Source: Desulfotalea psychrophila LSv54
Lineage (GTDB): Bacteria; Desulfobacterota; Desulfobulbia; Desulfobulbales; Desulfocapsaceae
Assembly (NCBI RefSeq): GCF_000025945.1
Contig: NC_006138.1
Location: 900,001-932,000, forward strand
DNA: 32,000 nucleotides
Direction: 5' to 3'
Below the pieces are notes generated by a model. That model saw only the letters and a list, made by a program, of their open reading frames with translations. It searched no databases and was not told the origin of the DNA. Below are positions 1,005 to 25,600 of this stretch, one piece after another; the stretch's first letter is position 1, and every line of letters begins with the position of its first letter. The translations under genes and the position numbers were made by a program.

Positions 1005-1127
1005 TAGCTGTCCATCGAAATTGTATAGGGTTATGTCACTGTGTTCAACTCTTGCCGTGAGGGAGAGCACTAGCTCAATGCCTTGAGCCAGTGCCCTTAT
1101 AGCGGTCAGATTTCTAGGCTTGTCCTC

Positions 1128-2291: not shown

Positions 2292-2532
2292 AAAAAGTCT
2301 CCTTTTGTTACATATGTAAAGCATCTATTGCTTCTTGAAATAGTCGTACAGAAAATACCCACTATACATAATGGCGCAAGGTTTTTAGGATAATAAAAGG
2401 AGAAAAACGCAAAAACGATAATTAATGCGATATAAGATCCTCTGTGGTATCAATAAAGAGAGGTGTCCTGTTATGAAGAGATGGAGTGTGGATATCTATA
2501 GTGATTGAAATGATTTTTTCTTGGTGAAACAT

Positions 2533-3504
2533 ATGTCTATAGAAGCAGCGAAAAAGGTATTGGAAATAGAGGAACAGGGGCTTGCTGCCGTTCGTGAAAA
2601 TATTGGTGAAGAGTTTCTTGCCGCCGTTGAGGCTATTGTTAACTGCCCCACTCGGCTGGTAATCACGGGGATTGGTAAATCAGGTATTGTCGGTCAGAAA
2701 ATATCGGCGACCCTTAACAGTATAGGTACAAGTTCTTTTTTTCTTCATCCCGTTGAGGCCCTGCATGGCGACCTGGGGATGGTGATGGCAACGGATGTCG
2801 TTTTGGCAATCTCCTATTCAGGTGAAACGGCTGAGCTTAATGGTCTACTCAGAAGTTTAAAGGCTCGTGGCAACACTATTATTGGTATGACGGGAGGGGC
2901 AAAATCCACCTTGGCCATGGCATCGGATATTTTTCTTAATATACGAATTCCTGCCGAGGCCTGTCCACTTGGGCTTGCCCCCACCACATCGACCACCGCA
3001 ACCATGGCCTTAGGAGATGCCCTAGGCGTTGTTTTGCTTAATCGTAAGCAGTTTAAGGCTGAGGATTTTAGATTCAATCACCCCGGTGGTTCCCTGGGCG
3101 AGCGTCTTAAGGTGAAGGTTGCTGAGGTGATGATTACCGGTAGTGATATGCCCATGGTGGCGCCTGACCAAGATGCCATTGCTGCCCTAGCGGAGCTGAA
3201 CAGTAAAAATGTTGGAGCTGTTCTGGTGGTAGCTGATACAGGAATGCTCGCAGGAATTATTACCGATGGCGATGTTCGCCGTTATGTCCTCGATGCAGAG
3301 GCCCTGGAGGGGCTGTGTGCCGCGGATCTGATGACTAAGCATCCACTTACCATTGGTGACGGGGTGCTTGCTGCTGATGCTCTGAGCATAATGCAACAGC
3401 ATGAAGTGACTGTTCTTCCCGTGGTTAGCGAGGAGATGCGGTTAGTTGGTCTTCTCAATCTGCATAAGCTACTTGGCAAGGGTGAGTTCCGCTTTTTGAT
3501 TTAA
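2533..3504 (+). CDS. kdsD: Arabinose-5-phosphate isomerase (KpsF/GutQ/KdsD family; SIS domain plus two CBS domains)
   Basis: SIS motif VITGIGKSGIVGQKISATLNSIGT, then a C-terminal CBS pair (MITGSDMPMV..., LMTKHPLTI...). The ATG at 2533 is preferred over the TTG at 2521. Confidence 0.88.
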   Translation: MSIEAAKKVLEIEEQGLAAVRENIGEEFLAAVEAIVNCPTRLVITGIGKSGIVGQKISATLNSIGTSSFFLHPVEALHGDLGMVMATDVVLAISYSGETAELNGLLRSLKARGNTIIGMTGGAKSTLAMASDIFLNIRIPAEACPLGLAPTTSTTATMALGDALGVVLLNRKQFKAEDFRFNHPGGSLGERLKVKVAEVMITGSDMPMVAPDQDAIAALAELNSKNVGAVLVVADTGMLAGIITDGDVRRYVLDAEALEGLCAADLMTKHPLTIGDGVLAADALSIMQQHEVTVLPVVSEEMRLVGLLNLHKLLGKGEFRFLI

Positions 3505-3529
3505 GGGTAGGTCAGAGTATCCAGAGGTT

Positions 3530-5866
3530 CTAGTCGGCCTCTGGGCGAGGAGCAAATTGCCACTGATCTGTGGCTTTGTTGTATGCATAGTACATGACAA
3601 GGGTTAGTGGGCGATTCTGTGAAGTATCTGTTGCCTCCATTCTGTAAATGAGTTTTCCTGCTTCATCCTTAATAAATAGGATCTTGGGGGCCAGTAGCGT
3701 CTCTGGGGTAGCTGCGGGGTAATTTTCCAGGAAAATATCTATTTGCTGCCTCTGCAGAGCCACTCTTTTTTCTTCCACAAATTGTTCATTCTTTAGCATC
3801 TTCAGGTCTGAACTCATCTCCTCTTGTATTTGAATAAAGGCGGTCTCCTCGGCAAAGGCGCTTTGCTTGATAGTCTTGGCAATGTGTTGGTATGTTTTTA
3901 TTGCCTGGGCAAAGAGTTTAGCCTCTTTGTAGTTTTCACCGACCTGTTGATTTTGGATGATCTCTGTTTGCAGTATAATTCTTTTCAGTTTTTTGCTGCT
4001 CATGGCACTGTCTTCTTCTGGATCCGAGAGACCTTTGCCTTCAAGATTGGTTATAGCCCTCTTGTAGGCGGCAATGGCCTGCTCCCACTCTCCATTGGTA
4101 AAGGCTTCATTTCCCTGAGCAATCATTATGTAGAGTGCTATTTTACTGATTTTGTTTTCTGTTTCTGCTGCGGAGTTCTGCTTGGCCAGGGGATTGTCTT
4201 TTATTTTTTCCAAGGCATCGCGGTAGATCGGGAGGGCCTGGGCCCAGCTTGCAGTTTTGTAGAGTTTCTCCCCCTTCTCCGTGAGTTGCTGAAAGGCGCA
4301 TTCTTTGAGGCTAAACCTTATATCCTGCAAGGCGTGCTCAATTGCTGATCCAACTAATGTCTGGGCTTTCTTCTGGGCAGTTTGCAGCAGGGGTTCAGCC
4401 GATTTACAGCCATTTCTCTTATATTCAGTCAGGGCCCTCTCATGGGCCTGGTAAAAGCTTATCTCTGCTTTTGTCTGAAGCAGAATTTTTTTTTCTTTAT
4501 CCGTTTTGGCAATTGATCTTGCTTGGCGTAATCCTGCATTTGTTTTGGGCCAATCCCTGTTTGTTATGGCCGTTTGTACCTGAGCTATGACGGTACTAAA
4601 GGTAATAATTTTTTCCTGAGATTTTTTGTCTTGCCCTTTTTTATTAGAGAGATTAGCAGTTAGTCCTTGCCTGATCTGGGCAGAGAGGAGTATCTCTTTG
4701 CTCTTGGCCTCTATGCTAGAGAGCTTTTTACCGTAGAAAAGGGAAGAGGCTGAACTTTTTACCTGGGCACTTTCACAGAGAGCCTGTGCTGTTCTAAACT
4801 CTTTTCGTTCAAGGGCCGTTATGCACTGTTGATAGAGTCCTGTTGCCGATGTGGCTCTCCCCGTATCCTTAAAAAATTGTAAGGCGATGATTGCTGAGAT
4901 AATCGCGAAGAGGATAAGGGTGGGCAGAGGCGATATTCTGCCAAGGATATTTTGTTTTTTACTCTCTTTTGTTGGCAGGGGATTCTTCGCCTTTTTTCCT
5001 TCAAGAATAATTGCCTGTTCGAGACGCTTAATATTATCCTTAACATCGTAAAGATCAGAGACTTCTTCAAGGGCTTGGCGATACTTATCCAAGGCGCTCT
5101 GCGTTTCGCCATTTTCTTCATGGAGGCGGGCCTCTTTCTGCTTTTTCTGGGCGACGAGAAGAGCCTTGTCAGCTCTCTGTTGAAATGAACGACGTTCATT
5201 AAAGGTTGATTCGGTGGGAATTGCCTGTAGTTCTCTGTTGAGTTGGTTGAATCGTTTTTGGGCCAGGTATTCTTGGAGGAGAGAGAGATTATATCCCCTC
5301 TCTTTATCTGGAGTTGTGGCCTGCCCCTCGTCTGTGGGGCTTGATTCCAGAGAGATGGCGTCAAAGTTTATTGAAAAGTCGTCCTCTCTTACCTCTGGAA
5401 GGCTCGGGGCTATGGCTGTTTGCGCTAGCTCTGCCAGGGGAAAGTTGTCGGCGTGAGCAGCATACCATTGAGCCGCTCTTTCATTGAAGGCATTTTCTTT
5501 TGAGTAGACCTCACCTGTTATCATCCGAGATATAAATTCAACCAGTTCGGCACATGTTGTTTTGTCGGTCCAAAAATTGCCAAGACAAATTGCCCCAGGA
5601 TCAAAATCTGGGTGGAAGGTTGGGGTCAGTGGTTTGCAGTTGGGTGGGAAAAGTGGGAAACCAAAGGGGATTGAGAGTAATATGGCATGATGTTGCGATA
5701 GGCTGATTTTCTCTTTATCCTCAATGAGTCCTGTCAGTTGATAGCTGACCTCTGCCTCCTTGCCGTTTGTAGGGCTGTGAGGGGTAACCGTGATAAATTG
5801 ATGATCTGTAAAATAGGCGATCAGCTCTTTAATTGTCTCATCCTCTTGTGGCCTTGCAACTGACAT
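3530..5866 (-). CDS. Bitopic membrane protein: N-terminal UBC/E2-like domain, coiled-coil linker, single TM helix, C-terminal TPR-like helical repeats and a small beta-rich C-terminal module
   Basis: Uninterrupted 778-aa ORF. Residues ~58-135 match the E2 core pattern (FPLFPPNCKPLTPTFHPDFDPGAICLGNFW...). A hydrophobic 22-mer spans residues 311-332 and is preceded by a Lys/Arg-rich stretch. YxxAlxxy-type helical repeats follow the TM helix. Confidence 0.85.
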   Translation of the reverse strand: MSVARPQEDETIKELIAYFTDHQFITVTPHSPTNGKEAEVSYQLTGLIEDKEKISLSQHHAILLSIPFGFPLFPPNCKPLTPTFHPDFDPGAICLGNFWTDKTTCAELVEFISRMITGEVYSKENAFNERAAQWYAAHADNFPLAELAQTAIAPSLPEVREDDFSINFDAISLESSPTDEGQATTPDKERGYNLSLLQEYLAQKRFNQLNRELQAIPTESTFNERRSFQQRADKALLVAQKKQKEARLHEENGETQSALDKYRQALEEVSDLYDVKDNIKRLEQAIILEGKKAKNPLPTKESKKQNILGRISPLPTLILFAIISAIIALQFFKDTGRATSATGLYQQCITALERKEFRTAQALCESAQVKSSASSLFYGKKLSSIEAKSKEILLSAQIRQGLTANLSNKKGQDKKSQEKIITFSTVIAQVQTAITNRDWPKTNAGLRQARSIAKTDKEKKILLQTKAEISFYQAHERALTEYKRNGCKSAEPLLQTAQKKAQTLVGSAIEHALQDIRFSLKECAFQQLTEKGEKLYKTASWAQALPIYRDALEKIKDNPLAKQNSAAETENKISKIALYIMIAQGNEAFTNGEWEQAIAAYKRAITNLEGKGLSDPEEDSAMSSKKLKRIILQTEIIQNQQVGENYKEAKLFAQAIKTYQHIAKTIKQSAFAEETAFIQIQEEMSSDLKMLKNEQFVEEKRVALQRQQIDIFLENYPAATPETLLAPKILFIKDEAGKLIYRMEATDTSQNRPLTLVMYYAYNKATDQWQFAPRPEAD
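4871..4936 (-). other. Predicted transmembrane helix (residues 311-332, ISPLPTLILFAIISAIIALQFF)
   Basis: 22 consecutive apolar residues. The upstream flank KKAKNPLPTKESKKQNILGR is strongly basic, so the positive-inside rule places the E2-like domain in the cytoplasm. Confidence 0.75.
5426..5866 (-). other. UBC (E2 ubiquitin-conjugating enzyme)-like domain, residues 1-147; candidate catalytic Cys94 codon at 5585-5587
   Basis: AILLSIPFGFPLFPPNCKPLTPTFHPDFDPGAICLGNFWTDKTTCAELVEFISRMI aligns with canonical f.l.i.fp.dYPfkPPkv.F.t.iyHPNi...G.ICLdiL...W.p..ti..vL.si. The domain call rests on motif recognition only. Confidence 0.7.
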
Positions 5867-5896
5867 AATTACCCGATAATGTAAAATTTTTACGTG

Positions 5897-5924
5897 TTTA
5901 GCATAGCTATATTGGTTGCTATAA
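5897..5924 (+). promoter_or_regulatory. Candidate sigma70 promoter for the cNMP/DUF4388 gene
   Basis: TTAGCA (5897-5902), 16-nt spacer, TATAAT (5919-5924), lying in the divergent intergenic region. Confidence 0.35.
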
Positions 5925-6021
5925 TAAATACTATCAGTAAATGCAATTTTACTATTGTTCTATTTTAATAGAGGTGCTGAGGCAGGGTCTCTCTCTCTTC
6001 TACCTCGTCCCAGTGAGAATT

Positions 6022-7107
6022 ATGCTTAAAAAACCACTTTTCTTTCGAATAATTGAGCAAAAAAATTGTCCCATCTATGCAAAAGGGGAGCAATTTTTCT
6101 TATCAGAAAAGAGTTTTTCTTCTCCTGCCGGGAAAGATGCATGTTTAATTTTAGTTCGAAATCTGATAGAGCTCTTGTTTCAGCTCAGGGGGCAGTCTCG
6201 TTCTGAAACAGAGGGTCTTGTCTTTAATTGTAGCGGTTGTGTTGGCTTAATAAAATATAAAATTATTGAGTGCAGGGAAAAAAGAGACGTAGATCTTGTT
6301 CCGCTAGGTGTGAGTCTGGAACGGATCATTGAAGGTGCCTATGGGTTTGATATAAATAGTCCCTTTCTCCGTGCCCTCTCTGTAGATGGCCTTGATGGCA
6401 TTTTAGAGAAGTTTAAATTTGTTGAGCTTTGTTCTGGAGCGGTGCTTATGCAAAAGGGAAAGCGCAACTCCTCTCTCTATCTCCTGCTTGAGGGAGAGCT
6501 TCTTGTGGAAGATGGAGGTTTTATCCTGGGACGATTTTCCGCAGGAGATATTTGTGGTGAGATGAGTTATTTGGGAGCAGACCTTGCCGTCTCAACTATA
6601 CGGTCTAGTCGGGCAAGTAGATTACTTGCCATAGGCAGTAGCGATTTTGCCGAGTTGGTTTTTGCTAAGCCTGCAGTGCAGTTATTTATGGCAAAACTTA
6701 TGGCCCAGAGATTAGCCCGCAGTAATGCGGAGCGATCCCGTGATTTGCAGTCCTGCATGTCCGGGCGTCTTGATACGATTGCTGCCGCGGAACTATTGCA
6801 AATTTTCCATATGAATCAAAAAACGGGCATGCTCTTTCTGGCCCTGCGCGGAGGGCAGGCAAGTGTTTTTTTTCTTGAGGGGAGTGTAGTGCGCGCCCTC
6901 TATAAGGGCTTGGTTGGAAAAGAGGCCTTCTTTGCAATTTTAGTTGAAAAAAAAGGACGTTATCGATTCACCACAGGGCTTAGTCAGGAGGATATGAAAT
7001 CACCGGTAATCGGTGATTTCATGTCGATTTTGCTGGAGGGCATTCAACAGGTCGATGAGGCAGAACCTCAGGGGTCTTGCAGTCGGGACTTAGCTGCGAT
7101 TTTTTGA
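6022..7107 (+). CDS. Multi-domain regulator-like protein: N-terminal Cys-containing module, cyclic-nucleotide-binding-like (CAP_ED) domain, C-terminal DUF4388 domain
   Basis: CAP_ED-like segment LMQKGKRNSSLYLLLEGELLV...GDICGEMSYLG. DUF4388-like segment GRLDTIAAAELLQIFHMNQKTGMLFLALRGGQASVFFLEGSVVRALYKGLVGKEAFFAIL. Start is placed at ATG 6022 (MLKKPLFF...); the upstream ATG at 5941 is possible. Confidence 0.8.
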   Translation: MLKKPLFFRIIEQKNCPIYAKGEQFFLSEKSFSSPAGKDACLILVRNLIELLFQLRGQSRSETEGLVFNCSGCVGLIKYKIIECREKRDVDLVPLGVSLERIIEGAYGFDINSPFLRALSVDGLDGILEKFKFVELCSGAVLMQKGKRNSSLYLLLEGELLVEDGGFILGRFSAGDICGEMSYLGADLAVSTIRSSRASRLLAIGSSDFAELVFAKPAVQLFMAKLMAQRLARSNAERSRDLQSCMSGRLDTIAAAELLQIFHMNQKTGMLFLALRGGQASVFFLEGSVVRALYKGLVGKEAFFAILVEKKGRYRFTTGLSQEDMKSPVIGDFMSILLEGIQQVDEAEPQGSCSRDLAAIF

Positions 7108-7132
7108 AAAGCCCTGTTCATCAGGCCGCTCT

Positions 7133-7756
7133 CTACTCTTTGAATGGGGCCAATTCTAAGATATCCAAGAAGTTATCCACGTGAAAATTCGCATTGAGAT
7201 CCTTGTTTCTAAAGGCAATAAGAGGAACTCCGGCACTGGCAGCCTGTTGCTCATCCATAGTTGTATCTCCAATATGAATAGCCTCCTCAGGCTTACACCC
7301 AAAATGTTCTAATATTTCCAACATGCCATCGGCAGCAGGTTTGGGCCGTTTTGAGTTAACAGCTGTCATGACCTTGCCAAAATATTTTTTCAGCCCGTAG
7401 CTCTCTAACAGGGTCTCCATTGTTTCACTTCTATTGGTCGATATGGCTAGGTGAAAACGGTCTTTGATTGTCTCCAGGAAAACCGGTAGGTCTTTTTCCA
7501 TGTTCATATGACGGAGGAAGGAGCTGTAGTCGGTGTTTGCCCGTAGTCCTTCTATCTCTTGCATTGACTGCTCTGGATAGTTGCGAAAGATGTGTTTGAG
7601 GGCGTTTGTCACATTTGCGGCATGGACATAGTTAAGCTCGTCCTCATCCATGGGGGGGTGGCCAAGTTGGTCGAGGAGATAATTATAGTAGCTTTTGTTG
7701 AGATTTTTGGAGTCGAACATCACTCCGTCGCAGTCAAAGATAACAAGCTTGAGCAT
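7133..7756 (-). CDS. HAD-superfamily hydrolase (subfamily IA, phosphatase-like)
   Basis: Motif I at the N-terminus (VIFDCDGVMFDS), motif II (AISTN) and motif IV (HIGDTTMDEQ). Confidence 0.85.
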   Translation of the reverse strand: MLKLVIFDCDGVMFDSKNLNKSYYNYLLDQLGHPPMDEDELNYVHAANVTNALKHIFRNYPEQSMQEIEGLRANTDYSSFLRHMNMEKDLPVFLETIKDRFHLAISTNRSETMETLLESYGLKKYFGKVMTAVNSKRPKPAADGMLEILEHFGCKPEEAIHIGDTTMDEQQAASAGVPLIAFRNKDLNANFHVDNFLDILELAPFKE

Positions 7757-7854
7757 GGGCTATCACCGGGGTATTGATTTATGCGTTGAGTTAGGGGATG
7801 GGTTGTAATCCGTGGAGGCTTTTCTGCTAGCAACTGGGTAGGCAGGAAGCTGTG

Positions 7855-7902
7855 CTTATAAATATGGCCCCTCCTGCTAGGACTTCTGCTGGCAGGAGGG
7901 GC
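7855..7902 (-). terminator. Probable intrinsic terminator downstream of secDF
   Basis: 11-bp GC-rich stem GCCCCTCCTGC (7867-7877) / GCAGGAGGGGC (7892-7902). On the minus strand it is followed by CAUAUUUAUAAGC. Confidence 0.5.
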
Positions 7903-7919
7903 ATTGTTAAAAGAGTAAC

Positions 7920-10484
7920 CTAAGCCTTTTTCTTTATGGTTAACAGAGGACTTGCAATAAAGATAGAGGAGTAGGTTCCAACGATGATACCAATAAGCAG
8001 GGTAAAGGAAAAATCGTGAATTACCGGGCCACCCATAAGGAAAAGAACAAGGAGGACGAGAACCGTGGTCAGGGAAACAATAATTGTTCGACTGATAACC
8101 TGATTTACACTGTTGTTAATGATAGAGAAAAAAGAGTCGTGTTTATCGGCTTTTTGGGTGTTTTCTCGAATACGATCAAAGACAACAACGGAGTCATTAA
8201 GCGAGTAGCCTGCCAGGGTTAGCAGGGCCGTGACAATAAGCAGGGTGATCTCTATATTCATCAGCCAGCAAAGACCGAGTACCACTAAAACATCGTGGAA
8301 GGTTGCAGCGGCTGCCGCAAGTCCAAAACGAAAGTCAAATCGCAGGGCGAGGTAGAGAATAACACCAACCATGGATATGACGATGGCGAGGATTGCCTTG
8401 TCTCGTAATACGGCACTGACCGATGAACCGATTTCAGATTGGCTTTCAAGGGTGAAGGTCTTATCGGTTATTTTGCTACCGAGAATCTTATCAGCTTGTT
8501 CGCTCAAGTTGGCAACGGTCTCATCGGACTTTTTCAACTTGATCATGAGCTGATGTTCGTTCTCTACCTCCTGCAGGTTTGCTCCTTCAAGAGGGGTACC
8601 TTTGAAGGCATTACGTACTTCAGACATGGAAAAGTCACTGCTTACCTTGTACTGCAATAATGAACCACCGGAGAAATCAACACCAAGGTTGGCGGCACCA
8701 CGGCCAATTTGAATAACGGCAAAAAGGCCAATGATCACCATGACAGTAGATATGGTAAAGGAGATCTTACGCAGGCTGAGATAGTCAATTGATGGTCTCT
8801 TCACCAGCTCCATGAATTTCAGGGTCTTCATTGGTCTGATGGAGTTGATTGTTTCAAACATGGTGCGTGAAAAGAAGAGCGCTGTGAAGAGGTTGAAGAT
8901 AATACCCAGGGAGAGGGTAATGGCAAAACCTTTAATTGGGCCTGTTCCAAAGAGGAAGAGGGCCATTGCTGTAATAAGTGTTGTTACCTGGGAATCGACA
9001 ATGGTCCAGAAGGCCTTATCGAATCCTGCATTAATACTTGCCCGTACAGATTTTCCGAGGGTGTACTCATCACGCATTCGTTCAAAGATGAGGACGTTGG
9101 AATCGACGGCCATACCAATGGAGAGAATGATACCTGCAATGCCCGGTAGGGTAAGGGTGGCATTGAGAATGGCAAGCCCGGTGAAGAGGAGGAGGATATT
9201 GAGGAAGAGGGCTGTGTTGGCTATAACACCGGAGAGACGGTAGTAGATGGCCATGAAGATCAAGACCAACAGGGTGCCAAAGAGACCAGAGTAGAGACCC
9301 TTGTTAATAGAGTCCTGGCCAAGACTTGCGCCTACTGTGACATTTTGGATAATATCAACCGGTGCAGGCAGGGCTCCAACACGGAGGACAATGGCCAGAT
9401 CGGCCGCATCTTCGTGGCTGAAGGAGCCTGAAATTTGCGCGGACCCGCCGATAATTCGTTCCCTGATAACGGGGGCAGAGCGAACAACATTATCCAGGAC
9501 AATGGCCATTCTACGCCCAACATTCTGTTCGGTGATTTTGGCAAAGACTCGGCCGCCACGACCTGTCATGTCCAGACTGACATAGGGTTCGTTAAAGGTG
9601 CCGCCAATACGTACCTGGGCATCTTTGATCATGTCACCGGTCATCAAAACCTTGTTTTCAAGCAATAGGGGGGTGACGATCTCTTTGCCTGTTTTAGGGT
9701 CTATGTCTTTTTCAAAATAAATTGAAGTCCCTTCGGGCAGAAGAGATTCAATAGCGCGATTAAGCTTTACTGTATCCTCACCATCCTGCCACTTCTTTGT
9801 ATCCCGGGCCTGGTTGATGATCTGTCTGAGATTAACACCTGGGGTGTCGGAAACTACTTTAAATTCAAGTTGAGCTGTATCGCCGAGGAGTTTAAGTGCT
9901 CGTTTTGGATCCTTGACCCCGGGAAGTTGGATGACGATCTCATCGTTGCCCTGGCGGATGATAACAGGTTCGGCAACACCAAATTGATCGATACGGTTTC
10001 TGATGATCTCAAGAGACTGGTTGACGGCATTATCGTAAATAAAATCTTTCTTCTCTTGGGTGAGAGTAAGGGCTATGCGGGGAAAAGAGCCCTCCTTGTT
10101 ATCAATGCGAACATTGATGTTAGGGAATTCACTGTCGATGATAGTTTTTACTTTGCCTATTGCGCTGGCGTTGGGCAGGGTGAAGACAATGGTGTCTGCT
10201 TGGCCCGAGGGGGTGCGTACGGCACTTATAGACTCTTCTGCCAGGGTGTCCTTGAGGTCGTTGGCTGCAAACTGGAGGGCATTTTCTTCAGCCTTGGGCA
10301 GGTTGACCTTGAGGACGAGATGCATGCCACCCTGAAGATCAAGTCCTAACCTCAGTCCTTCAGGTGCCATATATTTCTTCCACCAATCAGGCGTTGAAGA
10401 ATAGAAGGAGGGCATGAGCGTGATACCAGACATGCAGACCAGGCAAAAAAGGAGGACAAGTTTAATTTTTAATTTCGATTTCAT
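7920..10484 (-). CDS. secDF: Fused protein-export membrane protein SecDF
   Basis: A SecD-type periplasmic domain and 6 TM segments are followed by a SecF-type half (...GVDFSGGSLLQYK..., ...AATFHDVLVVLG...) in one ORF. Start is taken at ATG 10482-10484 (MKSKLKIKLVLLF, AAGG upstream). The alternative ATG at 10523 lacks an SD. Confidence 0.9.
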   Translation of the reverse strand: MKSKLKIKLVLLFCLVCMSGITLMPSFYSSTPDWWKKYMAPEGLRLGLDLQGGMHLVLKVNLPKAEENALQFAANDLKDTLAEESISAVRTPSGQADTIVFTLPNASAIGKVKTIIDSEFPNINVRIDNKEGSFPRIALTLTQEKKDFIYDNAVNQSLEIIRNRIDQFGVAEPVIIRQGNDEIVIQLPGVKDPKRALKLLGDTAQLEFKVVSDTPGVNLRQIINQARDTKKWQDGEDTVKLNRAIESLLPEGTSIYFEKDIDPKTGKEIVTPLLLENKVLMTGDMIKDAQVRIGGTFNEPYVSLDMTGRGGRVFAKITEQNVGRRMAIVLDNVVRSAPVIRERIIGGSAQISGSFSHEDAADLAIVLRVGALPAPVDIIQNVTVGASLGQDSINKGLYSGLFGTLLVLIFMAIYYRLSGVIANTALFLNILLLFTGLAILNATLTLPGIAGIILSIGMAVDSNVLIFERMRDEYTLGKSVRASINAGFDKAFWTIVDSQVTTLITAMALFLFGTGPIKGFAITLSLGIIFNLFTALFFSRTMFETINSIRPMKTLKFMELVKRPSIDYLSLRKISFTISTVMVIIGLFAVIQIGRGAANLGVDFSGGSLLQYKVSSDFSMSEVRNAFKGTPLEGANLQEVENEHQLMIKLKKSDETVANLSEQADKILGSKITDKTFTLESQSEIGSSVSAVLRDKAILAIVISMVGVILYLALRFDFRFGLAAAAATFHDVLVVLGLCWLMNIEITLLIVTALLTLAGYSLNDSVVVFDRIRENTQKADKHDSFFSIINNSVNQVISRTIIVSLTTVLVLLVLFLMGGPVIHDFSFTLLIGIIVGTYSSIFIASPLLTIKKKA

Positions 10485-10627
10485 CGGTAACCTTGCGGAT
10501 TTCTTTTTTATATTTGGCGTCATGCATAAGTGAAAGAAACCACTTATACCTTGTCATACCATGGGGGGTATGCGCAACAGGCACGCAACAATAATGAGCG
10601 ATCTAGAATGATTCTCCAAACCTTACG

Positions 10628-10655
10628 ATTATACTCTAAAGCCTAAATCTTGCAA
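10628..10655 (-). promoter_or_regulatory. Candidate sigma70 promoter for secDF
   Basis: The minus strand reads TTGCAA, 16-nt spacer, TATAAT, about 125-165 nt upstream of the candidate secDF starts. Confidence 0.4.
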
Positions 10656-10784
10656 GTTTATGACTAAAAAATATCGAGAGAAACTGTGCCCTTGGGATTT
10701 TGTTTCTGAGGTGTTTGAGGGAAAATGGGAAATGACCAGACAGGACAAAGCTTATCTGTCTGTTTCTCCGTGGTAAAGAGGCGG

Positions 10785-11549
<765 letters not shown>

Positions 11550-11607
11550 GGTGTGCTCTTATCGTGTGGAGAAGGGTTCTGGTGGATGAGTCCAGTCATT
11601 GCCTTAA

Positions 11608-11642
11608 GAGAAGAGGGGGCGGCTTAGGCCCCCCCTCCTCTC
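11608..11642 (-). terminator. Possible terminator hairpin downstream of bamD
   Basis: Imperfect GC-rich inverted repeat GAGAAGAGGGGGC...GCCCCCCCTCCTCTC. The U-tract on the minus strand is weak. Confidence 0.35.
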
Positions 11643-11666
11643 AGACTGGCTTTGTCGTAGGAGTCT

Positions 11667-12464
11667 TTAGCGATTGGGCTCGGTGTTAATCGTATTGTCC
11701 TCATCGTCGGCGACCTTAGTCCAATCGGGCAACTTAAAGTCAGGAAACCAAGAGAAAAGAGGGCGACGCGGTGGATTGCCAGCCTGTATTTCTGCCAGAA
11801 TCTTCTCTGCCTTGGGGATTACATTGGTATTTGGGTAGGCGGTGATAAGGTATTCCAAGCGGGTCTCTGCCTGTTCGTATTTTTCTGTTCTCAGATAAAA
11901 TTCAATGACGGCAAATTCATGATCTGCCAGGAATGAAATTGCCTCTGCAATATTTTTTCTGGCGTTGGTAGTATAGGGCGAATTGGGGAATGCCCTGAGT
12001 AGTTGGCTGAAGAAATCGACAGCCCTGCGGGCAACAATGGGGTCCCGGTCAATACGATCAATTTGTTTGTAATTAGACATGCCCTTTTGGTACATGACGT
12101 AGGGAATCGCCTCATTAGTTGGGTGACGATCCTCAAAATCCTGATATTGAGCAAGGGCTTCGGGGTATTTATCCATATAGTAATTACAGTCGGCAGCCTT
12201 GAGCTCTGCAAGTGGGGCTTCGGGGCTAAATGGGTATTTTTCAAGAATTTCTTGAAAATAGGAGATAGCGCCAAAATATTTTCCGACATTGTAATCTTCC
12301 ATACCTTTTATGATCAGGTCGTTAGCAGGAAATTCAAGGTCAGGTTTTTCGTAGGTGATATCAAACATTGATTTCATGTCGGCGCAACCACCTAGAAGAG
12401 ACATGGCAATGATAATGATGGCAAAGCTGTGCAGAGATTTTCTCACAAAATGTATTCCGTTCAT
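11667..12464 (-). CDS. bamD: Outer-membrane protein assembly factor BamD (YfiO-like TPR lipoprotein)
   Basis: Lipoprotein signal with lipobox LLGGC, then TPR-like repeats. Length (265 aa) and layout are typical of BamD. Confidence 0.8.
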   Translation of the reverse strand: MNGIHFVRKSLHSFAIIIIAMSLLGGCADMKSMFDITYEKPDLEFPANDLIIKGMEDYNVGKYFGAISYFQEILEKYPFSPEAPLAELKAADCNYYMDKYPEALAQYQDFEDRHPTNEAIPYVMYQKGMSNYKQIDRIDRDPIVARRAVDFFSQLLRAFPNSPYTTNARKNIAEAISFLADHEFAVIEFYLRTEKYEQAETRLEYLITAYPNTNVIPKAEKILAEIQAGNPPRRPLFSWFPDFKLPDWTKVADDEDNTINTEPNR

Positions 12465-12545
12465 TTTTTATTCCAAGAGGGATTGGTCTATGATGGCTGT
12501 TTTCGTCTTCCGGCGATCAGGCTACTTGCAGGAAGACGAAAAGAA

Positions 12546-13481
12546 TCACTTGAGGTTGTTGAGGTATTCTTCGGCAGCCAGTACAGCTACAGCACCTTCA
12601 CCCGCCGCGTTAATTACCTGACGGACATCTTTGCTAATGATATCTCCTGCTGCCATAACACCGGGAACCGATGTACGGGTCTCGATGTCAACGGGGATAA
12701 AACCCCATTTGTCGGCCTGTAGCTTTTCAAGGGGCAGGCAGCTGTTTAGGGGAGTAATACCCACAAAAATGAAGATGCCATGGGCATTAAGGGTTGATTT
12801 ATTACCATCTTTATCGATCAGCTGGATTCTTTCAACACCGTTTTCGCCTTCAATGGCCGTCACTTGAGAGTTCCAGATGAACTCAAGTTTCTCATTGGCC
12901 AGGGCAGATTCCTGCAGGACCTTTGTCGCCCGTAGTTCTTCGCGCCTGTGGATAACCGTTACCTTGCTAGCAAACTTTGTCAGATATTCAGCCTCCTGAA
13001 TTGCGGTGTTTCCACCACCAACAACGGCAACCTCCATATTTCTGTAAAACGGCGCATCGCATGTGCCACAATAGGAGACACCCTTGCCTCGCATCTCTTC
13101 TTCTCCAGGCACCTTGAGGGAATTTGCCCGGGCACCGGTACAGATGACCAAGGTGTCGAAGGTAATTGTCTGGCCATTATCGAGTTTGAGGGATTTTTTC
13201 TTTGGATCATCGAGGTTGACGGAGAGGACCTCCGCCATAAGGCTGTTGAGATCAAATCTCTTGGCCTGGGCAGACATCTTTTCAATAAGATCAAAGCCGG
13301 AAATTCCGTCGGGAAAGCCAGGGTAGTTATCAATCCAGTCGGTAAGAAGTACCTGTCCGCCGTGTGCACCTCGTTCAATCAGCACATGGTTAAGGCGAGC
13401 CCGGGCTGCGTAGAGTCCTGCGGATAAACCAGCTGGCCCGCCGCCGAGTATTACCAATTCGTAATGTGTAGTTTGTTCCAT
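12546..13481 (-). CDS. trxB: Thioredoxin-disulfide reductase (low-Mr type)
   Basis: FAD motif ILGGGPAG, redox centre CGTCDAPF (canonical CATCDG), NADPH motif VVGGGNTA...HRREELRA. Confidence 0.95.
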   Translation of the reverse strand: MEQTTHYELVILGGGPAGLSAGLYAARARLNHVLIERGAHGGQVLLTDWIDNYPGFPDGISGFDLIEKMSAQAKRFDLNSLMAEVLSVNLDDPKKKSLKLDNGQTITFDTLVICTGARANSLKVPGEEEMRGKGVSYCGTCDAPFYRNMEVAVVGGGNTAIQEAEYLTKFASKVTVIHRREELRATKVLQESALANEKLEFIWNSQVTAIEGENGVERIQLIDKDGNKSTLNAHGIFIFVGITPLNSCLPLEKLQADKWGFIPVDIETRTSVPGVMAAGDIISKDVRQVINAAGEGAVAVLAAEEYLNNLK

Positions 13482-13499
13482 AGGAAAATCACTTGCTAA

Positions 13500-13553
13500 A
13501 GGAAAAAGAACATCTCTGTCCTGGGCAGAGGATTACCTTTGTTCAGGACAGAG
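13500..13553 (-). terminator. Hairpin between trxA and trxB (terminator or attenuator)
   Basis: Perfect 10-bp stem CTCTGTCCTG (13514-13523) / CAGGACAGAG (13544-13553). On the minus strand it is followed by AUGUUCUUUUUCC. Confidence 0.5.
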
Positions 13554-13567
13554 TGAATAAATGGATT

Positions 13568-13894
13568 TTATAGAGCCTTGTTGCAGAGATCAACCAACTG
13601 TGTTTTACCAACTGCGCCGGTGAGCTGATCTATGGCCTCGCCATCTTTGAAGAGAATGATGGTTGGGATTGCCCTAATGCCATATTTGCCAGGAGTGTTA
13701 GGGTTGTCATCAACGTTCATCTTGGCAATGGTGACTTTTCCATCAAATTCGTTAGCGAGGTCTTCAATGACAGGGCCAATTGCCTTGCAGGGACCACACC
13801 ATGGGGCCCAAAAATCAACCAAAGTTGGTTGGCCTGAGCTGATTAATGTATCAAAATCTCCATCATTAACCTGCTGGACTTTTTCTGATGCCAT
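13568..13894 (-). CDS. trxA: Thioredoxin
   Basis: 108 aa with the WAPWCGPCK active site. Confidence 0.97.
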   Translation of the reverse strand: MASEKVQQVNDGDFDTLISSGQPTLVDFWAPWCGPCKAIGPVIEDLANEFDGKVTIAKMNVDDNPNTPGKYGIRAIPTIILFKDGEAIDQLTGAVGKTQLVDLCNKAL

Positions 13895-14229
13895 TGTGTT
13901 CTCCTTGTTTTGGTTAAATGAGTGTGTGTAATTTTTATATAAAAAGCTGAAATATTAAAAATATAGACGATTTTACCTTTTCATCCTTTCTCTTACAAGT
14001 AAATAGTGAAGAGCTGAAATAGGCAAGTAATTGTGAAAGTTTGTGCTTTATTTTTAACCCTGTACAAATTCCTACCCTGCTCATTCTTGACAAGAAAATC
14101 AAGTGCAGGGCCTGGAGTAAAAGAAAAAACTGTGGCGTGATATGTTGAGCGTTGTATTTTGTCCTAAAGTTTTTTAATTCAAAAGAATAAAAATTCCGTG
14201 TCCTTTTTTGGGTATGGTGAGGAGATAGT

Positions 14230-15522
14230 ATGGAGTCGTTGAAATCAAAAAAATTATTTGCAGAAGCCAAAAAAGTTATCCCCGGTGGGGTAAACAGTCC
14301 TGTTCGAGCCTGTCTCTCTGTTGGTTGTGACCCACTCTTTATAGAGCGCGCCGAGGGGAGTTATATTTACGATGCTGATGGGCAAAAGTACCTTGATTTT
14401 GTCAACTCCTGGGGGCCAATGATCATGGGGCATGCCCATCCGGATATAATCAAAGCCATACAGGATGCGGCGGTGTATGGCACCAGTTATGGTGCCCCGA
14501 CCAGTTCTGAGGTTGATCTCGCCTCCATGGTTGTTGAGGCTGTGCCGTCCATTGAGAAGGTGCGTTTTGTCAGCTCTGGTACCGAGGCGACCATGAGTGC
14601 GGTTCGCCTTGCCCGTGGCTATACAGGTAAAAATGTTATTGTTAAATTTGATGGCTGTTATCATGGTCATGCCGATTCTTTTTTAGTTAAGGCCGGTTCC
14701 GGTGTCCTGACCCTTGGTATTCCCGGTAGTCCCGGTGTGCCAGAGGATATTGTTAAAAACACCATCTCAATTCCCTACAATAGTGTTGAGGCCCTGGAGA
14801 CAACCCTGCGTGATGCCGATTTGAATATTGCCTGTGTTATAGTTGAACCTGTTGCCGGCAATATGGGTTGTGTGCCGCCAGCTCCGGGATTTCTGCAAAA
14901 ACTGCGAGAAATTACCGCAGAAGAGGGCATTGTTTTGATCTTTGACGAGGTTATCACAGGCTTTAGACTCTCCTACGGTGGTGCTCAACAATATTATGGG
15001 GTTACTCCGGATTTGACCTGTCTCGGTAAGATTATTGGCGGAGGCCTGCCCGTTGGTGCCTATGGTGGTAAGGCCGATATTATGAACAGTGTTGCCCCAG
15101 ACGGTCCTGTCTATCAGGCGGGCACACTCTCGGGAAATCCTCTTGCCATGGCTGCTGGTAAGGCTGCTCTGAAGTTGCTTCAGCAGGATGGATTCTATGA
15201 GGACTTGAACCAAAAATCCGCGGCCTATGCCGATGGTTTGCTTGAGGTGGCCGGGAGAGTTGGGCTACCTATGCAACTTAATCGGGTAGGTTCAGTGATG
15301 ACCTCATTTTTTACTGCGACGCCTGTCACTGACTTTGAAACAGCAATGAAGGCAGATACCGGACTTTATGGAAGGCACTACAGGCAGATGCTTGATTCAG
15401 GTATTTACCTTGCCCCGTCTCAATTTGAGTGCTCTTTCATGTCAAGCACTCATAGCGATGCAGATCTAAAAAGAGCGCTATTAGAGACAGAAAAGTCATT
15501 TTCTCTATTGAAAAATGCATGA
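14230..15522 (+). CDS. hemL: Glutamate-1-semialdehyde 2,1-aminomutase
   Basis: 430 aa. Typical N-terminus ...AKKVIPGGVNSPVRA..., class-III aminotransferase fold, PLP-lysine region GKIIGGGLPVGAYGG. Confidence 0.96.
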   Translation: MESLKSKKLFAEAKKVIPGGVNSPVRACLSVGCDPLFIERAEGSYIYDADGQKYLDFVNSWGPMIMGHAHPDIIKAIQDAAVYGTSYGAPTSSEVDLASMVVEAVPSIEKVRFVSSGTEATMSAVRLARGYTGKNVIVKFDGCYHGHADSFLVKAGSGVLTLGIPGSPGVPEDIVKNTISIPYNSVEALETTLRDADLNIACVIVEPVAGNMGCVPPAPGFLQKLREITAEEGIVLIFDEVITGFRLSYGGAQQYYGVTPDLTCLGKIIGGGLPVGAYGGKADIMNSVAPDGPVYQAGTLSGNPLAMAAGKAALKLLQQDGFYEDLNQKSAAYADGLLEVAGRVGLPMQLNRVGSVMTSFFTATPVTDFETAMKADTGLYGRHYRQMLDSGIYLAPSQFECSFMSSTHSDADLKRALLETEKSFSLLKNA

Positions 15523-19640: not shown

Positions 19641-20364
19641 TTAGCTTTTTTTTGCGAAGATTAAATTTATTTCGGTGGGAGAAAGCCTTTTGAATTGGCC
19701 AGTTGCCAGTGTTTGCAGTTCCAGCTTACCGTAGGCGATCCGTTTGAGGTGGTTAACAGGGTGGCCAATAGCGGCAAACATTTTTTTAACCTGATGCTTG
19801 CGTCCTTCGTGGATGGTGATGGCAACCTTGGTGCTATGTTTTTTTTGTGAGAGAATCTTTACCCTTGCAGGAGCGGTTGGCTTTCCCTCCAAAAGGATAC
19901 CCTGTTCAAGGCGCTGCAGTTTGGCCCTTGAGGGGGTGCCGCTGAGGTCAGCCTCATAGGTTTTAAAGGTTTCGTAGCTGGGGTGGCAGGGTCTTTTGGG
20001 CAAGATCGCCATCGTTGGTGAGGAGGAGAGCACCCTCCGTGTCAAAGTCAAGTCGACCCACGGGGAAAACTCTCTCATTAATGCCATGGAGAAGATCGGT
20101 TACCACCGGACGTCCCTGTGGATCTGATAGGGTTGTAACATATCCCTTTGGTTTATTGAGCAGGTAGTAGACCTTTTGCTCTTCTTCCTTAACCAGTTTG
20201 CCATCAACGGTAATCTTGTCGATGTCTGGAGTTATTTTTGTGCCAAGGATGAGGACTGTTTCACCGTTAAGGGTGACCCGGCCATCAAGGATGAGCTGCT
20301 CCGCTTTGCGACGGGAGCAGATGCCGGAGGCGGCTAAAAATTTTTGCAGGCGAACTGGAGACAT
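19641..20364 (-). pseudogene. rluB: RluB/RsuA-family pseudouridine synthase interrupted by a single +1 nt frameshift
   Basis: The S4 domain (MSPVRLQKFLAASGICSRRKAEQLI) and catalytic region (VFPVGRLDFDTEGALLLTNDGDLAQKTL) lie in one frame. HPSYETFKTYEADL...IHEGRKHQVKKMF lies in the next frame. Deleting one C near plus-strand base 19986 restores LLTNDGDLAQKTLHPSYE. The span is 724 nt, which is 3n+1. Confidence 0.85.
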
Positions 20365-20956
20365 AATATTATAGGACTTGATTGTTGATGGGGGGCGATG
20401 GGTGAGAGTGCTTTTTTCTATCTTGCAAAAAATCTTCGTGATATTCATCTTCACTGAGATGGTGCGCAACACGAGGGCTATTTGATCAAATGCCTGATTG
20501 ATCTCTTTACTGTTGAGTCGTGCAGAGAGGAGGTCGGCAAACTCTTTTCTACCCAGTAGTTGCAGAAGGTTGGAAAAAGAGATGCGGTCGAGCTTTTCGC
20601 TGAGGCCGAAACAGATTTGAGGTGTATCAGGGAGCATAGTCAATCCTATCATATTGAAGTTATTTCATAATAGACCTTTTTTTTGCAGAAGGCATTCATT
20701 TTTTAAAGTGTTGCCTTTCGCAGGAGCTGGGCCTGGGGTGCCGGGGCTCATTCCTCAATGAAAGAACATGTGCTACAATAATTTTTGAGAGCCCGCTTTT
20801 TTCTGCGCTAGAGGAGGAGTAATATATTTCTTTTCTCACAATCAGTCAATATTGTTAGAATGTCATGTGAAAACTATTTTATAAGAAATCTGAGCATATG
20901 GGGCTGGGCTTAGGGGTTAGGAGATTTTTCTATTAAGAATAAAGGGCTATGTTAAA

Positions 20957-22577: not shown

Positions 22578-22614
22578 GGGGGAGGCACTGGCTGGTGACC
22601 TTCCCTTTTTTTTG
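22578..22614 (+). terminator. Rho-independent terminator after gap
   Basis: Stem GGGGAGGCAC / GTGACCTTCCC (one bulge) followed by T8 at 22606-22613. Confidence 0.7.
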
Positions 22615-22695
22615 TTTTATGAGAGTGCTATTTTCCCTGTACTCAGGCCTCTCCGCTACCCCTATAAAAAATTGTTACTCTTCTTAGGTATAACT

Positions 22696-25600
22696 ATGGA
22701 TCGTCATGATGTTGGTCAGGTTTTGCAGTCCGATGCCCTGAAGGCAAACCTTCTGGAAACGGCAGGCACTGTTGAAATTGATAGTGAATTACTGCTACTT
22801 CTCTCAGCTGTAAAGAAGTATCGGGGTCTTCATAAGACTTTGGAAAAGTTGCTCTATGAAATTTGTCATCCTTTTCGAAACTGGAAACTTATTCTTCCCC
22901 AGTTTCGAAGTTATACCCTGAAGAATACAGGGCATTATTTAAAGGATGAGTCCGGTCCAGAGGCAGTAGGGCTTTTTGCCCGTCTGTTTTTTGAGGCCAT
23001 AGAGGATGTGCGTCGAGATCCCGTCCTGCTTGCTCAGGCAGTGGCGGCTCTGCTTATCTGGCTAGAGAAGCTGGCAAAGGATTTACCTGAGGGGAGGCAA
23101 GAGGCGTTTGAGCCTGTCCTGACCGATATCTTTTCCCGCCTCACTCGTTTTGATGAAGAGGATGAGGCCGCGATGATGCAGATGGTTTATGGCCAGTGTT
23201 CTCTGGCGGGGTTGGTTCGTGCCCGCCTGAGCTCTTCTGAGACGGAGGGGGCGGATTGCTCTTCCCTGGTCAGGCTCTATGAGATGGTTTTACACAGGAC
23301 CTATGCCTACTGGCTCTTGGAAGATGATCCCCTCCAGTGGTTTTTGATGAGATGCAAGATGGTTGCCAATGATCTTACTGCAAGGGAGACGTTTAAAGAT
23401 ATCTCCCATCTGTCCATGCAGTCGCGCTTGACTGAACTCAAGCGTATTCGTCAGGAAACAGCAGGTGTCGCGACCCTCAGGGCCATGCTAGGACTTGCCT
23501 CTCATATTGATATTGTTCGTTTTTATCGGGCGATCCCCGATAAGCTTGCCGAGTTAGATATCGTCTCCGACTGTTTCGCTAAAGAGGATGCGGCAAGTTC
23601 TAATTTTAACGAAAATAGAAAGATCCTCTTTCTCTTTAAAATAATGGATACAGAGGGGCTACATCTTGTCCACGAAGAAACCCTCCGGGAAATTAACAGA
23701 AGCCTGGTTCAGTTAATTCGCCAGCAGACCTTTGAGGAGATTGAAGAGTTTCTTTTGGCAACTTTTGAACTGTTGGAGGTCAATGTAAGGAAGTACCCAC
23801 ATACCTCTCTGCAGTGTATTCAGGTTTTGGGTGGTGAGGTCTTTGACCGGAGCAACAGCCGCATGGTGGAGGCATTTTTGTGGGGAGTGGTTCGCTTTGG
23901 CTTTCAGCATGCCAATGTCGTTGGGGTGGATGAGAATTGGCAACCTCTGACTAACCCTGCCCATCTGGCCAATATTCGAGTGTGGTTGCATTTAATCATG
24001 CGGGAGCCAAAGTGGTGTGCGACCCTCTTTTCTGCCCTTATCATTCATATTAAACTTTCGGGCACCTGCATTAAGGATACGGATCTTTTTCAGCGTGATA
24101 TTACCGAGCTACTTAACCATCCCATTAAGCCCGTCTATAATCTCTGCAAACAGTTCGCCAAGCTTATGCCCGTTTTTTTTAATGAGATAGGATCTGAAGG
24201 GGAGTTACGCGATGTCTCTACAGAACTTGATGAGATGCATCGGCGAAAAGATGTCCTTATTCACTTTCTGAGAAAGCAGGGGCATGTGGAGAGTTCCAAT
24301 CTTATTGTCGATTTTATTAAGGCAATTTTTCTTTTCTGGCAGACAAAGGACAAGAGTAAATTACAGCCTCATGTTCCGGATGAGGTCTATGTCCAGGTCT
24401 CTTCCGAGGGACGATATGTTGATGAAGCACATAGGCTTACCCTGCGATTGTGGCAGGAGCAAAATCTGAAAAATGTCTCCGACCTTCTTGGTGTTGATGA
24501 GGAGACGATGGCGGAGTTTTTGCTTCGTCAGCAGGATATTGATCCCCGTGAGGTGCGCCGTTTTGAGCTGTTGGTTCGTATGTTTAAGTTGCTCCATGCC
24601 AAGTATCAGCTGAGCTTTCAGGATTTGCGTCCAGAACTTCTTGCCGCGGCCAAGAACGGTTTTCCGCAAATGAGAGACCTGCTCGATAGGCTTGATCAGA
24701 AGGATGTTCGGCAAAGTTTGTCGGCTCTTTTGCAGAGCCTGCTTGCCCTTAAGGAGATTATCCTCTCCGAGGAGAGTTTTGAGGCCCGGGAGGATATTTA
24801 CTATAAGAGGCATATTGCCGTAGATATTCCATCTGTTTATGGTCGCTATAAGGAGCGTAAGTTTGACGCCCTGAGTCTCTCCTTTCGTCTGGAGAATCAT
24901 GCCAACATCTATCTGGAAAAATTGGCCGGCACCATCAACCTGGCCATGATCACTCAGGCAACTTTTTATGATATTATTGGCTGCCTGAAGCTCTATATTC
25001 AGGCCCTCAGTGTCGACGGTATCAGCTCTCGTAAATTGGTGACCAGTCTCTCTCTGCTTAAAAACTCGCTTAAGGTACGGCGTTTTTCCTATACCCAGTA
25101 TCTGGATATCTTTAAGGGGATGTCCGAGGGGGTAAAGGATATTATCTATGCCTTTTACACAAATATCCATCAGAACAATCTCTCTATCATTATTCCTCAG
25201 CTGAGTCGAGAAGAGGTGATGCAGAAGTATAGATCGCTCTATGATGAGGATATGGGCATCTCTGTTCATCGGGTTTCCGAGGCCTTTTTGCGTGAGCTTA
25301 TCTCTTCAACATTTGGCCTGCAACATCTGGATAATTTTATTTTGCAGATTCTTGCTACCCTTGAAAATCAGCGGGAGATGCTTTCGGAGAGAAATCTTGA
25401 TCTGCTTATGACCTACAATCCCAATAGGGCTATTTCTGAGCTGCACAATCCTAATCCTCTTGCCAGTAATCTCATCTATCTTGGCAATAAGGGCTTTAAT
25501 CTGGCAACCCTTGCCGCTGATAATAAGCCCATTCCGCCTGCCTTTGTCATTACCACCGAGGTCTTTCGTTGTCGTAATATTGTCTTTGGCTATTCAGAGG

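Follow-up and report, generated by a model that had tools for sequence, protein, structure and literature searches.

The stretch analysed here, 32,000 nucleotides of the Desulfotalea psychrophila LSv54 chromosome (NC_006138.1, positions 900,001 to 932,000; hereafter the window), contains a gene for a protein of 778 amino acids (aa) whose N-terminal 146 residues have a genuine UBC/E2 fold (i.e. that of the ubiquitin-conjugating enzymes), beyond what a chance motif match would give. The cysteine at the catalytic position of this fold is present in D. psychrophila and its nearest relatives and is replaced, mostly by arginine, in full-length orthologs elsewhere in the family. We consider, with moderate confidence, that the protein is a transmembrane scaffold or signalling protein whose E2-derived domain, on the cytoplasmic side, serves for binding as a UEV-like pseudo-E2. 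The gene and the parts of it on which this argument turns are the following (ORF, open reading frame; AF2, AlphaFold2).

3530..5866, reverse strand: whole gene, encoding a 778-aa protein predicted to be bitopic in the inner membrane (ORF list and full-length AF2 model)
5429..5866, reverse strand: UBC/E2-fold domain, residues 1-146, predicted cytoplasmic (Pfam, PDB profile, AF2, Foldseek)
5570..5614, reverse strand: equivalent of the active-site loop, residues 85-99, HPDFDPGAICLGNFW (translation)
5585..5587, reverse strand: codon of Cys94, where E2s have their catalytic cysteine (alignment with UBE2C)
5636..5638, reverse strand: codon of Cys77, in PPxCKP on strand beta4 (family alignment)

The original prediction, made from the DNA alone, had placed an E2 core in the N-terminus, and Pfam, phmmer, a profile search of the PDB and AF2 combined with Foldseek all point to UBC/E2. 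The Pfam match to UQ_con (PF00179) aligns residues 60-142 with profile positions 47-132 at E=6.8e-5, and its score of 22.9 bits lies under the gathering cut-off of 27 bits; homology nevertheless stands, because the profile of the family itself matches E2s in the PDB. This profile, built from 27 N-domains of the family, finds 108 distinct PDB sequences at E<=0.01 (the best being UBE2C at 6e-6), and all 60 matches listed are E2-type chains, with Cys94 aligned to the catalytic cysteine of UBE2C. A phmmer search of the PDB sequences with the N-terminal 163 residues returns E2s and nothing else. The AF2 model of residues 1-146 (pLDDT 87.1, pTM 0.83) runs from a helix (5-18) through a beta-meander (25-79) and the active-site loop to helices 105-116 and 129-137, and yields 383 Foldseek matches in the PDB at E<=1e-3, among which the 50 listed are all canonical E2s (TM-scores 0.61-0.71). 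The Prok-E2, RWD and UEV families of Pfam gave no match to the full-length protein, even when E-values up to 10 were admitted. The 778-aa ORF, the codon of Cys94 and residues 85-99 translate exactly as had been claimed, the His-Pro-Asp, Cys94 and Trp99 elements are present in both translation and alignment, and the ORF product is 100% identical to the D. psychrophila protein returned by homology search.

Conservation of these elements was read from a profile search with the N-domain, which reached 1198 cluster representatives at E<=1e-3 (602 at <=1e-10 and 148 at <=1e-30) and of which the best 150 representatives form the family alignment used here. P71, P75, H85, P86, W99 and A131 are invariant in 150/150. 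Thus, of the residues that had been singled out for their possible catalytic role, His85 and Trp99 hold throughout the alignment, but Cys94 does not: it is found in 87 representatives, against Arg in 39 and other residues (S, A, K, H and more) in 24, and only within the near clade is it close to constant (38/39 close homologs and 78/80 species genomes of group A, the group defined below). The third residue of His-Pro-x, Asp87 in D. psychrophila, is Asp in 125 of the representatives.

The family divides into three groups. Group A, to which the D. psychrophila protein belongs, reads HPDFDPxAIC[LI]GDFW and consists of proteins of about 800 aa with one transmembrane segment; group B reads HPDIDPDAIRIADFWQ, with Arg94, and has the same one-transmembrane architecture at 790-1040 aa; group C reads HPNxDPxAICIGDHWA (i.e. 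HPN and Cys) and varies in architecture. The Asn of the HPN motif has become Asp throughout groups A and B and is Asn in 18/18 members of group C. Groups A and B both have the PFG[FY]PHFPP loop, HPD, D89, W99, N128, A131 and W134, and among positions conserved to >=80% in both, only 66, 70, 94 and 96 are different. To these comes position 77, which is an invariant Cys in groups A and C and, with two exceptions, V, A or I in the 39 Arg94 (group B) members. Parsimony on a neighbour-joining tree of the N-domains gives at least 11 switches between Cys94 and another residue; inside group A, Cys94 is sporadically replaced by H, S, N, F, A, K or Y, and altogether it is missing in the group B orthologs and in at least 10 further lineages.

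The group B proteins (P0110-P0160), which are found in metagenome-assembled genomes of Desulfobulbus propionicus and in Ca. Electrothrix (cable bacteria), are true orthologs of the D. psychrophila protein, as follows from their synteny, their full length and their C-terminal match. At the locus of one of them (P0129) the genes for a CxxCxxCC protein, HAD, a divergent PatA_N protein, the E2-like protein itself, KdsD, BirA and DsrD stand in this order, and the last 250 residues of P0129, terminal beta module included, match the D. psychrophila protein at E=5e-24. Since full-length syntenic orthologs have Arg (or Lys, Ser, Ala, His and others) in place of Cys94, the function common to the family needs no thioester. 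The cytoplasmic thioester chemistry that the original prediction attached to this protein is therefore weakened at the level of the family, by Arg94 in syntenic orthologs, by the at least 11 changes and by the change from HPN to HPD, and the more cautious option offered alongside it, a UBC/UEV-like module without catalytic activity, fits the family as a whole better, although the D. psychrophila protein itself keeps its cysteine under selection.

In the scenario we favour, an operon-type E2 would have been captured in an ancestor of the Desulfobulbales and fused to an acidic linker, a helical bundle, a transmembrane helix, a periplasmic TPR-like solenoid and a C-terminal beta module, while its E1, ubiquitin-like protein (Ubl), JAB and RING partners would have been lost and HPN would have become HPD. 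Given the Asp of groups A and B and the Asn of group C, the N-to-D change would coincide with the origin of the transmembrane-TPR fusion and with the loss of the partners. The periplasmic TPR domain would bind an envelope partner or ligand, and in the Desulfocapsaceae-type clade, where both Cys94 and Cys77 are kept under purifying selection, the two may contribute a thiol reactivity of a regulatory or residual kind.

Several points weigh against this pseudo-E2 reading. In group A, Cys94 is encoded by both synonymous codons (TGC 48, TGT 30), and together with its near constancy in the clade of D. psychrophila this pattern clearly speaks for purifying selection on the residue. Nowhere in the protein is conservation higher, moreover, than over residues 76-100 (mean column identity 0.85), and an active thiol enzyme would be expected to show both this conservation of the active-site loop and selection on Cys94. 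In 25/39 group B orthologs a Cys occupies position 117, which falls in the loop behind helix alpha2. In E2 structures this loop adjoins the active-site cleft, so that a thiol relocated to position 117 of the Arg-type orthologs is conceivable; Cys117 is not universal in group B, and 3/39 of these orthologs have no Cys in the whole domain. The search for partner genes covered ~10 kb either side of each gene, plus the window. Finally, the case for a signalling role is an architectural one, and it is by analogy that such a role appears most likely.

The alternative that gains from some of these points is that the E2 is catalytically competent in the Desulfocapsaceae, with Cys94 charged by an unlinked E1 (a MoeB/ThiF paralog) carrying a beta-grasp protein of the ThiS, MoaD or YukD type. 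The alignment of Cys94 with the catalytic cysteine, the purifying selection on it, the invariance of His85-Pro86 and Trp99 and the conservation of the active-site loop are all in line with this, as is the fact that the nearest relatives looked at are operon E2s which come with an E1 and a Ubl and likewise have predicted transmembrane segments. On the other hand, syntenic full-length orthologs manage without the Cys, with the repeated changes described above, and the Asn of HPN is replaced by Asp. This Asn is needed for isopeptide formation and not for thioester formation, as known from E2 mutagenesis. We regard a competent enzyme as unlikely, though still the strongest of the competing explanations, and the same holds for its extension, in which cytoplasmic or membrane targets would be modified according to the state of the periplasmic TPR domain and the Arg-type orthologs would be secondary pseudo-enzymes. 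The more specific proposal that the Desulfocapsaceae protein is a working membrane-tethered E2-type thiol enzyme without a dedicated operon, its TPR sensor coupled to covalent modification, is rather doubtful; just as doubtful is the charging route that it would need, be it a non-canonical one or the use of a MoeB/ThiF-type housekeeping E1 together with a Ubl resembling a sulfur carrier. If true, the proposal would mean that free-living bacteria have a ubiquitin-like conjugation pathway which is constitutive, independent of an operon and not devoted to defence, and the Cys-to-Arg orthologs of the cable bacteria would represent a conversion to pseudo-enzyme.

A competent enzyme is also opposed by the lack of partner genes in the vicinity. 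As had been noted from the DNA, no E1, Ubl or deubiquitinase gene lies nearby: in the 32-kb window Pfam finds no E1, Ubl, JAB or RING gene among the ORFs, and there are no ORFs of 50-160 aa ending in Gly-Gly. When the E1, JAB, RING and VWA proteins of a related operon (described below) were used as tblastn queries, nothing was found in the window and 92 other loci (1.58 Mb), apart from the locus of the query operon itself. Among the top 120 relatives of the E1 of that operon, the minority that carry a name include no Desulfobulbales, which is weak evidence in the same direction. PADLOC gives no match for the E2-like protein, and membership of a defence system was rejected, as the PADLOC matches of its neighbour are due to a cNMP-binding domain only.

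The E2s closest to the family are those of group C, which match the family profile at ~1e-30 to 1e-35, compared to ~1e-5 for eukaryotic E2s. Their gene context was looked at for one locus (L008, in its longer version L093), a metagenome sequence of which positions 3096-15299 encode a YukD-like Ubl (89 aa), a ThiF E1, JAB, a small transmembrane protein, VWA+FHA, Prok-RING_1+RDD, Prok-RING_1 and two E2s. The two E2s are 932 and 816 aa long, both score above the UQ_con gathering cut-off and both have predicted transmembrane segments, which runs counter to the premise of the original prediction that prokaryotic E2s are soluble. Their C-terminal regions show no similarity to the D. psychrophila protein; a C-terminal architecture shared with operon-type membrane E2s was ruled out, the sequences being unrelated. 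One named member of group C comes from Ca. Sumerlaeota, and the named relatives of the operon E1 come from Planctomycetota, Sumerlaeota and Hydrogenedentes. We take the operon type to be that of the prokaryotic RING-containing ubiquitin-like systems of Burroughs, Iyer and Aravind (2011). A related archaeal cascade has been reconstituted (PMC5654768). In a 2006 survey (PMC1779556) D. psychrophila is found only in the lists of species abbreviations, and the passages found there do not describe the E2-like protein.

A different role for the cysteines would be that of a thiol sensor or switch, in which the pair Cys77/Cys94 is reversibly oxidised or persulfidated and thereby alters what the domain binds, without any ubiquitin-like protein. 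Cys77 and Cys94 do co-vary, both being present in groups A and C and position 77 being V, A or I in nearly all Arg94 members, and Cys77 is kept in 100% of group A, including the members that have lost Cys94. The site is flanked by the acidic residues D87 and D89, and such chemistry would be relevant in a sulfate reducer, in which the gene moreover lies near dsrAB. Cys77 may, however, be a mere buried structural residue. UBC9 has a Cys at the equivalent position, without known redox pairing. The closeness to the dsr genes also reflects the synteny of a conserved block across loci (see below) and not an operon. On balance, a switch of this kind, for which the argument is one of residue patterns, seems quite improbable, and functions outside all of the readings discussed here retain a small but appreciable share of the probability.

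The first homology search gave 39 full-length relatives, and when every GTDB species was represented by one genome, 129 species genomes proved to encode a relative, in single copy. Among the 80 records listed, all named ones are Desulfobulbales (Desulfotalea, Desulforhopalus, Desulfopila, Desulfofustis, Desulfobulbus and Desulfoprunum). The gene has the same place in a block of housekeeping genes at all inspected loci, the order of the block being SecDF, (CxxCxxCC), HAD, the divergent cNMP/PatA_N gene, the E2-like gene, convergent KdsD, MetK, (AhcY), (BirA), DsrD, DsrBA and PGI. The E2-like gene is thus a vertically inherited and apparently monocistronic core gene of the order Desulfobulbales. 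The immediate neighbours in D. psychrophila are as had been described from the DNA, according to the ORF list and Pfam.

2521..3504, forward strand: KdsD-type gene (SIS+CBS), convergent with the E2-like gene, 25-bp gap (Pfam)
5941..7107, forward strand: gene for a protein with cNMP-binding and PatA_N (DUF4388/PATAN) domains, divergent from the E2-like gene (Pfam)

KdsD is convergent downstream of the E2-like gene in 62/64 loci, while the PATAN gene stands divergent and within 1.5 kb upstream in 65/76 genome loci; the latter is missing from a Desulfofustis-like set and from the lineage of P0162, and at a group B locus (L007, 4650-7661) the upstream neighbour has PatA_N only. PATAN is therefore a frequent, not an obligate, partner gene. 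Because the whole block from SecDF to DsrAB is syntenic, adjacency within it says little on function, and a functional tie inferred from the neighbourhood was rejected: the adjacency to KdsD looks like plain synteny and that to PATAN has been lost in several lineages. The D. psychrophila block differs from that of its relatives in having no gene for a CxxCxxCC domain between SecDF and HAD (window 7757-7919) and no adenosylhomocysteinase gene after MetK (window 1005-1127). The first ATG of the PATAN ORF leaves an intergenic region of 74 bp, and tblastn alignments of orthologs usually start at about residue 35 of the query; an in-frame ATG at 6022 (MLKKPLFF...) is the more plausible start. Two sigma-70-like promoter matches lie on the forward strand at 5860-5925.

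The same distribution bears on whether the domain could be a recent acquisition of a eukaryotic E2 (by horizontal transfer or as effector-like mimicry) or, alternatively, a chance motif match. The best PDB matches are indeed eukaryotic E2s, but this is accounted for by the scarcity of solved structures for bacterial E2s of this type. The gene occupies one syntenic chromosomal slot across a whole bacterial order, its GC content is unremarkable, it encodes an inner-membrane protein without secretion features, and bacterial operon-type E2s are far closer to it than eukaryotic ones. Chance, for its part, is contradicted by an unambiguous fold match. Synteny, order-wide spread, closer bacterial relatives and fold together effectively refute both explanations, leaving them a very faint probability at most.

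Outside the E2 domain, the protein is divided as follows.

5294..5428, reverse strand: acidic disordered linker, residues 147-191 (AF2 pLDDT <50)
4988..5287, reverse strand: five-helix TPR/MIT-like bundle, residues 194-293, predicted cytoplasmic (AF2 helices)
4871..4936, reverse strand: single transmembrane helix, residues 311-332, reading ISPLPTLILFAIISAIIALQFF (hydropathy)
4823-4825 and 4775-4777, reverse strand: codons of Cys348 and Cys364 (invariant in the near clade)
3722..4870, reverse strand: TPR-like alpha-solenoid, residues 333-715, predicted extracytoplasmic (AF2 helices 357-715, ~360 aa)
3533..3721, reverse strand: C-terminal four-stranded beta module, residues 716-778 (strands 724-771, AF2)

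This layout agrees with the original prediction, which had proposed a single transmembrane segment with a basic upstream flank and the E2 domain in the cytoplasm, a large TPR-like extracytoplasmic domain and a small beta-rich module at the C-terminus. One strong hydropathy peak stands at the same relative position in 39/39 close homologs, with K/R enriched upstream of it, and in the D. psychrophila protein the flanks contain 7 K/R upstream versus 2 downstream. Since the protein has no signal peptide, a 310-residue N-terminal region, one transmembrane helix and a K/R-rich upstream flank, a bitopic topology would follow, with the N-terminus in the cytoplasm and the C-terminus outside. In the full-length AF2 model of the 778-aa protein (pLDDT 82) the transmembrane segment lies within a long helix (313-353), preceded by a basic, disordered segment (293-312).

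The linker contains an acidic-hydrophobic motif (family consensus DTLxxxDxSxDFDxLxLE, in D. psychrophila DDFSINFDAISLE) that could be a short linear docking motif, and in the helical bundle behind it residues 240-272 give weak Pfam matches to TPR_7 and MIT. A periplasmic disulfide may link Cys348 to Cys364, which lie on the outer side close to the membrane. With the full model, Foldseek returns E2s, TPR proteins (P58IPK, OGT and others, at ~1e-5 to 1e-3 for the solenoid) and an anti-sigma factor (8rw5, E=6e-4) that spans the membrane and has a TPR region in the periplasm. Every Pfam TPR match is under its gathering cut-off (the best, TPR_7, with 25.5 vs 27.9 bits), and the repeat domain is best described, on the strength of the model, as TPR-like; a scan of the 778-aa protein against NCBIfam gave only spurious TPR-type matches, far under the cut-offs. 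The C-terminal beta module packs on the last long helix and is kept across groups A and B. Profile searches found for it no Pfam family and no credible sequence relative in the PDB; designed Kelch-repeat proteins came up as relatives and were judged spurious, with zero significant stretches in the PDB profile matches. In the unit formed by this helix and the four strands (~residues 672-778, window 3533-3850), family position 745 is Cys in ~83% of cases and Ala in D. psychrophila.

Compared to canonical eukaryotic E2s (UBE2C, UBC9, UBE2D), the D. psychrophila domain has the same helix alpha1, four-strand meander, His-Pro-x, Cys, Trp and crossover helix, but HPD where these have HPN and a Pfam score under the cut-off; unlike them, the protein is bacterial, is fused to a transmembrane segment and a periplasmic TPR-like domain, has no E1, ubiquitin or E3 nearby and varies in its Cys among orthologs. 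The E2s of the Ubl-E1-JAB-RING-E2 operon, the closest sequence relatives outside the family, are likewise long (816-932 aa) with predicted transmembrane segments and have Cys77, His85, Pro86, Cys94 and Trp99 in common with it. They differ in keeping HPN together with Cys in group C, in their unrelated C-terminal regions and in having operon genes that are absent from the inspected Desulfobulbales loci. In UEVs and other pseudo-E2s (Mms2/Uev1a, the UEV of Tsg101, RWD-like domains) the UBC fold lacks the Cys, which is the state of the Arg94 orthologs of Desulfobulbus and Electrothrix. Unlike UEVs, the clade of D. psychrophila keeps the Cys, His-Pro is invariant, the protein is membrane-anchored and no Pfam UEV or RWD family matches; classical UEVs usually have no His-Pro motif.

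In the tail-anchored E2s of the endoplasmic reticulum (Ubc6, UBE2J1, UBE2J2) the E2 domain is likewise cytosolic with a single transmembrane helix C-terminal to it. On the luminal side these extend by no more than a short tail, and they cooperate with the E3s of endoplasmic reticulum-associated degradation, whereas in D. psychrophila ~445 extracytoplasmic residues would follow the transmembrane helix and there is no evident ubiquitin system. With respect to Prok-E2_A-E, CBASS Cap2, BilB and Bub, the protein is nearer to classical UQ_con, partnerless and without a Prok-E2 match, while passages of PMC1779556 describe Prok-E2-type proteins as fused or operon-linked to E1 and JAB and as lacking a classical HPN-type motif. 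The anti-sigma factor DdvA (8rw5) is built likewise, with an N-terminal cytoplasmic partner-binding domain, one transmembrane segment and a large periplasmic helical-repeat domain, but the match to it covers the TPR-like part only, with a low TM-score, and the D. psychrophila protein has neither a ZAS domain nor an adjacent ECF sigma gene; the likeness is one of architecture, by analogy, and not homology of the output domain.

Two further observations in the window concern other genes. A pseudouridine synthase gene (19641-20652, reverse strand) appears to be split into two overlapping ORFs, one (19963-20652) with an S4 domain and PseudoU_synth_2 profile positions 2-64 and the other (19641-20087) with positions 119-152; this points to a frameshift, to a pseudogene or to an error in the sequence. 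An ORF of 1449 aa (22612-26961, forward strand) matches Pfam only in its C-terminal ~450 residues (PPDK_N and the mobile domain of the PEP-utilizers), the N-terminal ~1000 residues being without a Pfam match; it is unusually large for a PEP-utilising-type protein.

To our knowledge, the bacterial E2-like proteins studied so far belong to mobile, sporadic operons with E1, Ubl and JAB, many of them in phage defence. The architecture described here is not categorically new, because membrane-associated prokaryotic E2s exist in operons, and neither is the detection of the E2 domain, which automated annotation already names ("ubiquitin-conjugating enzyme E2" at NCBI, "UBC core domain-containing protein" in UniRef/UniProt). 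Of the claim that the architecture is undescribed, it is the lack of a dedicated study that stands: full-text literature searches found none of this E2-like family, the key Aravind-group papers PMC2701696 and PMC5938088 being outside the searched text. What is unusual for the bacterial E2 superfamily is a partnerless, order-wide core gene and a natural Cys/Arg split between sister clades.

This also poses a problem for annotation, since the Arg94 proteins of Ca. Electrothrix, which are unable to form a thioester at position 94, are still automatically named "ubiquitin-conjugating enzyme E2" by NCBI. For the organisms themselves, it means that across a whole order of sulfate reducers and cable bacteria a classical-type E2 fold, with all of its partners gone, has become established in a core gene whose product is membrane-anchored and which is present in single copy and inherited vertically. 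One clade keeps the Cys under selection and its sister clade has a conserved Arg, with the rest of the protein kept, which amounts to a natural experiment and offers a system for asking what the E2 fold does without a ubiquitin-carrier role, and how modules of the pseudo-E2/UEV type arise.

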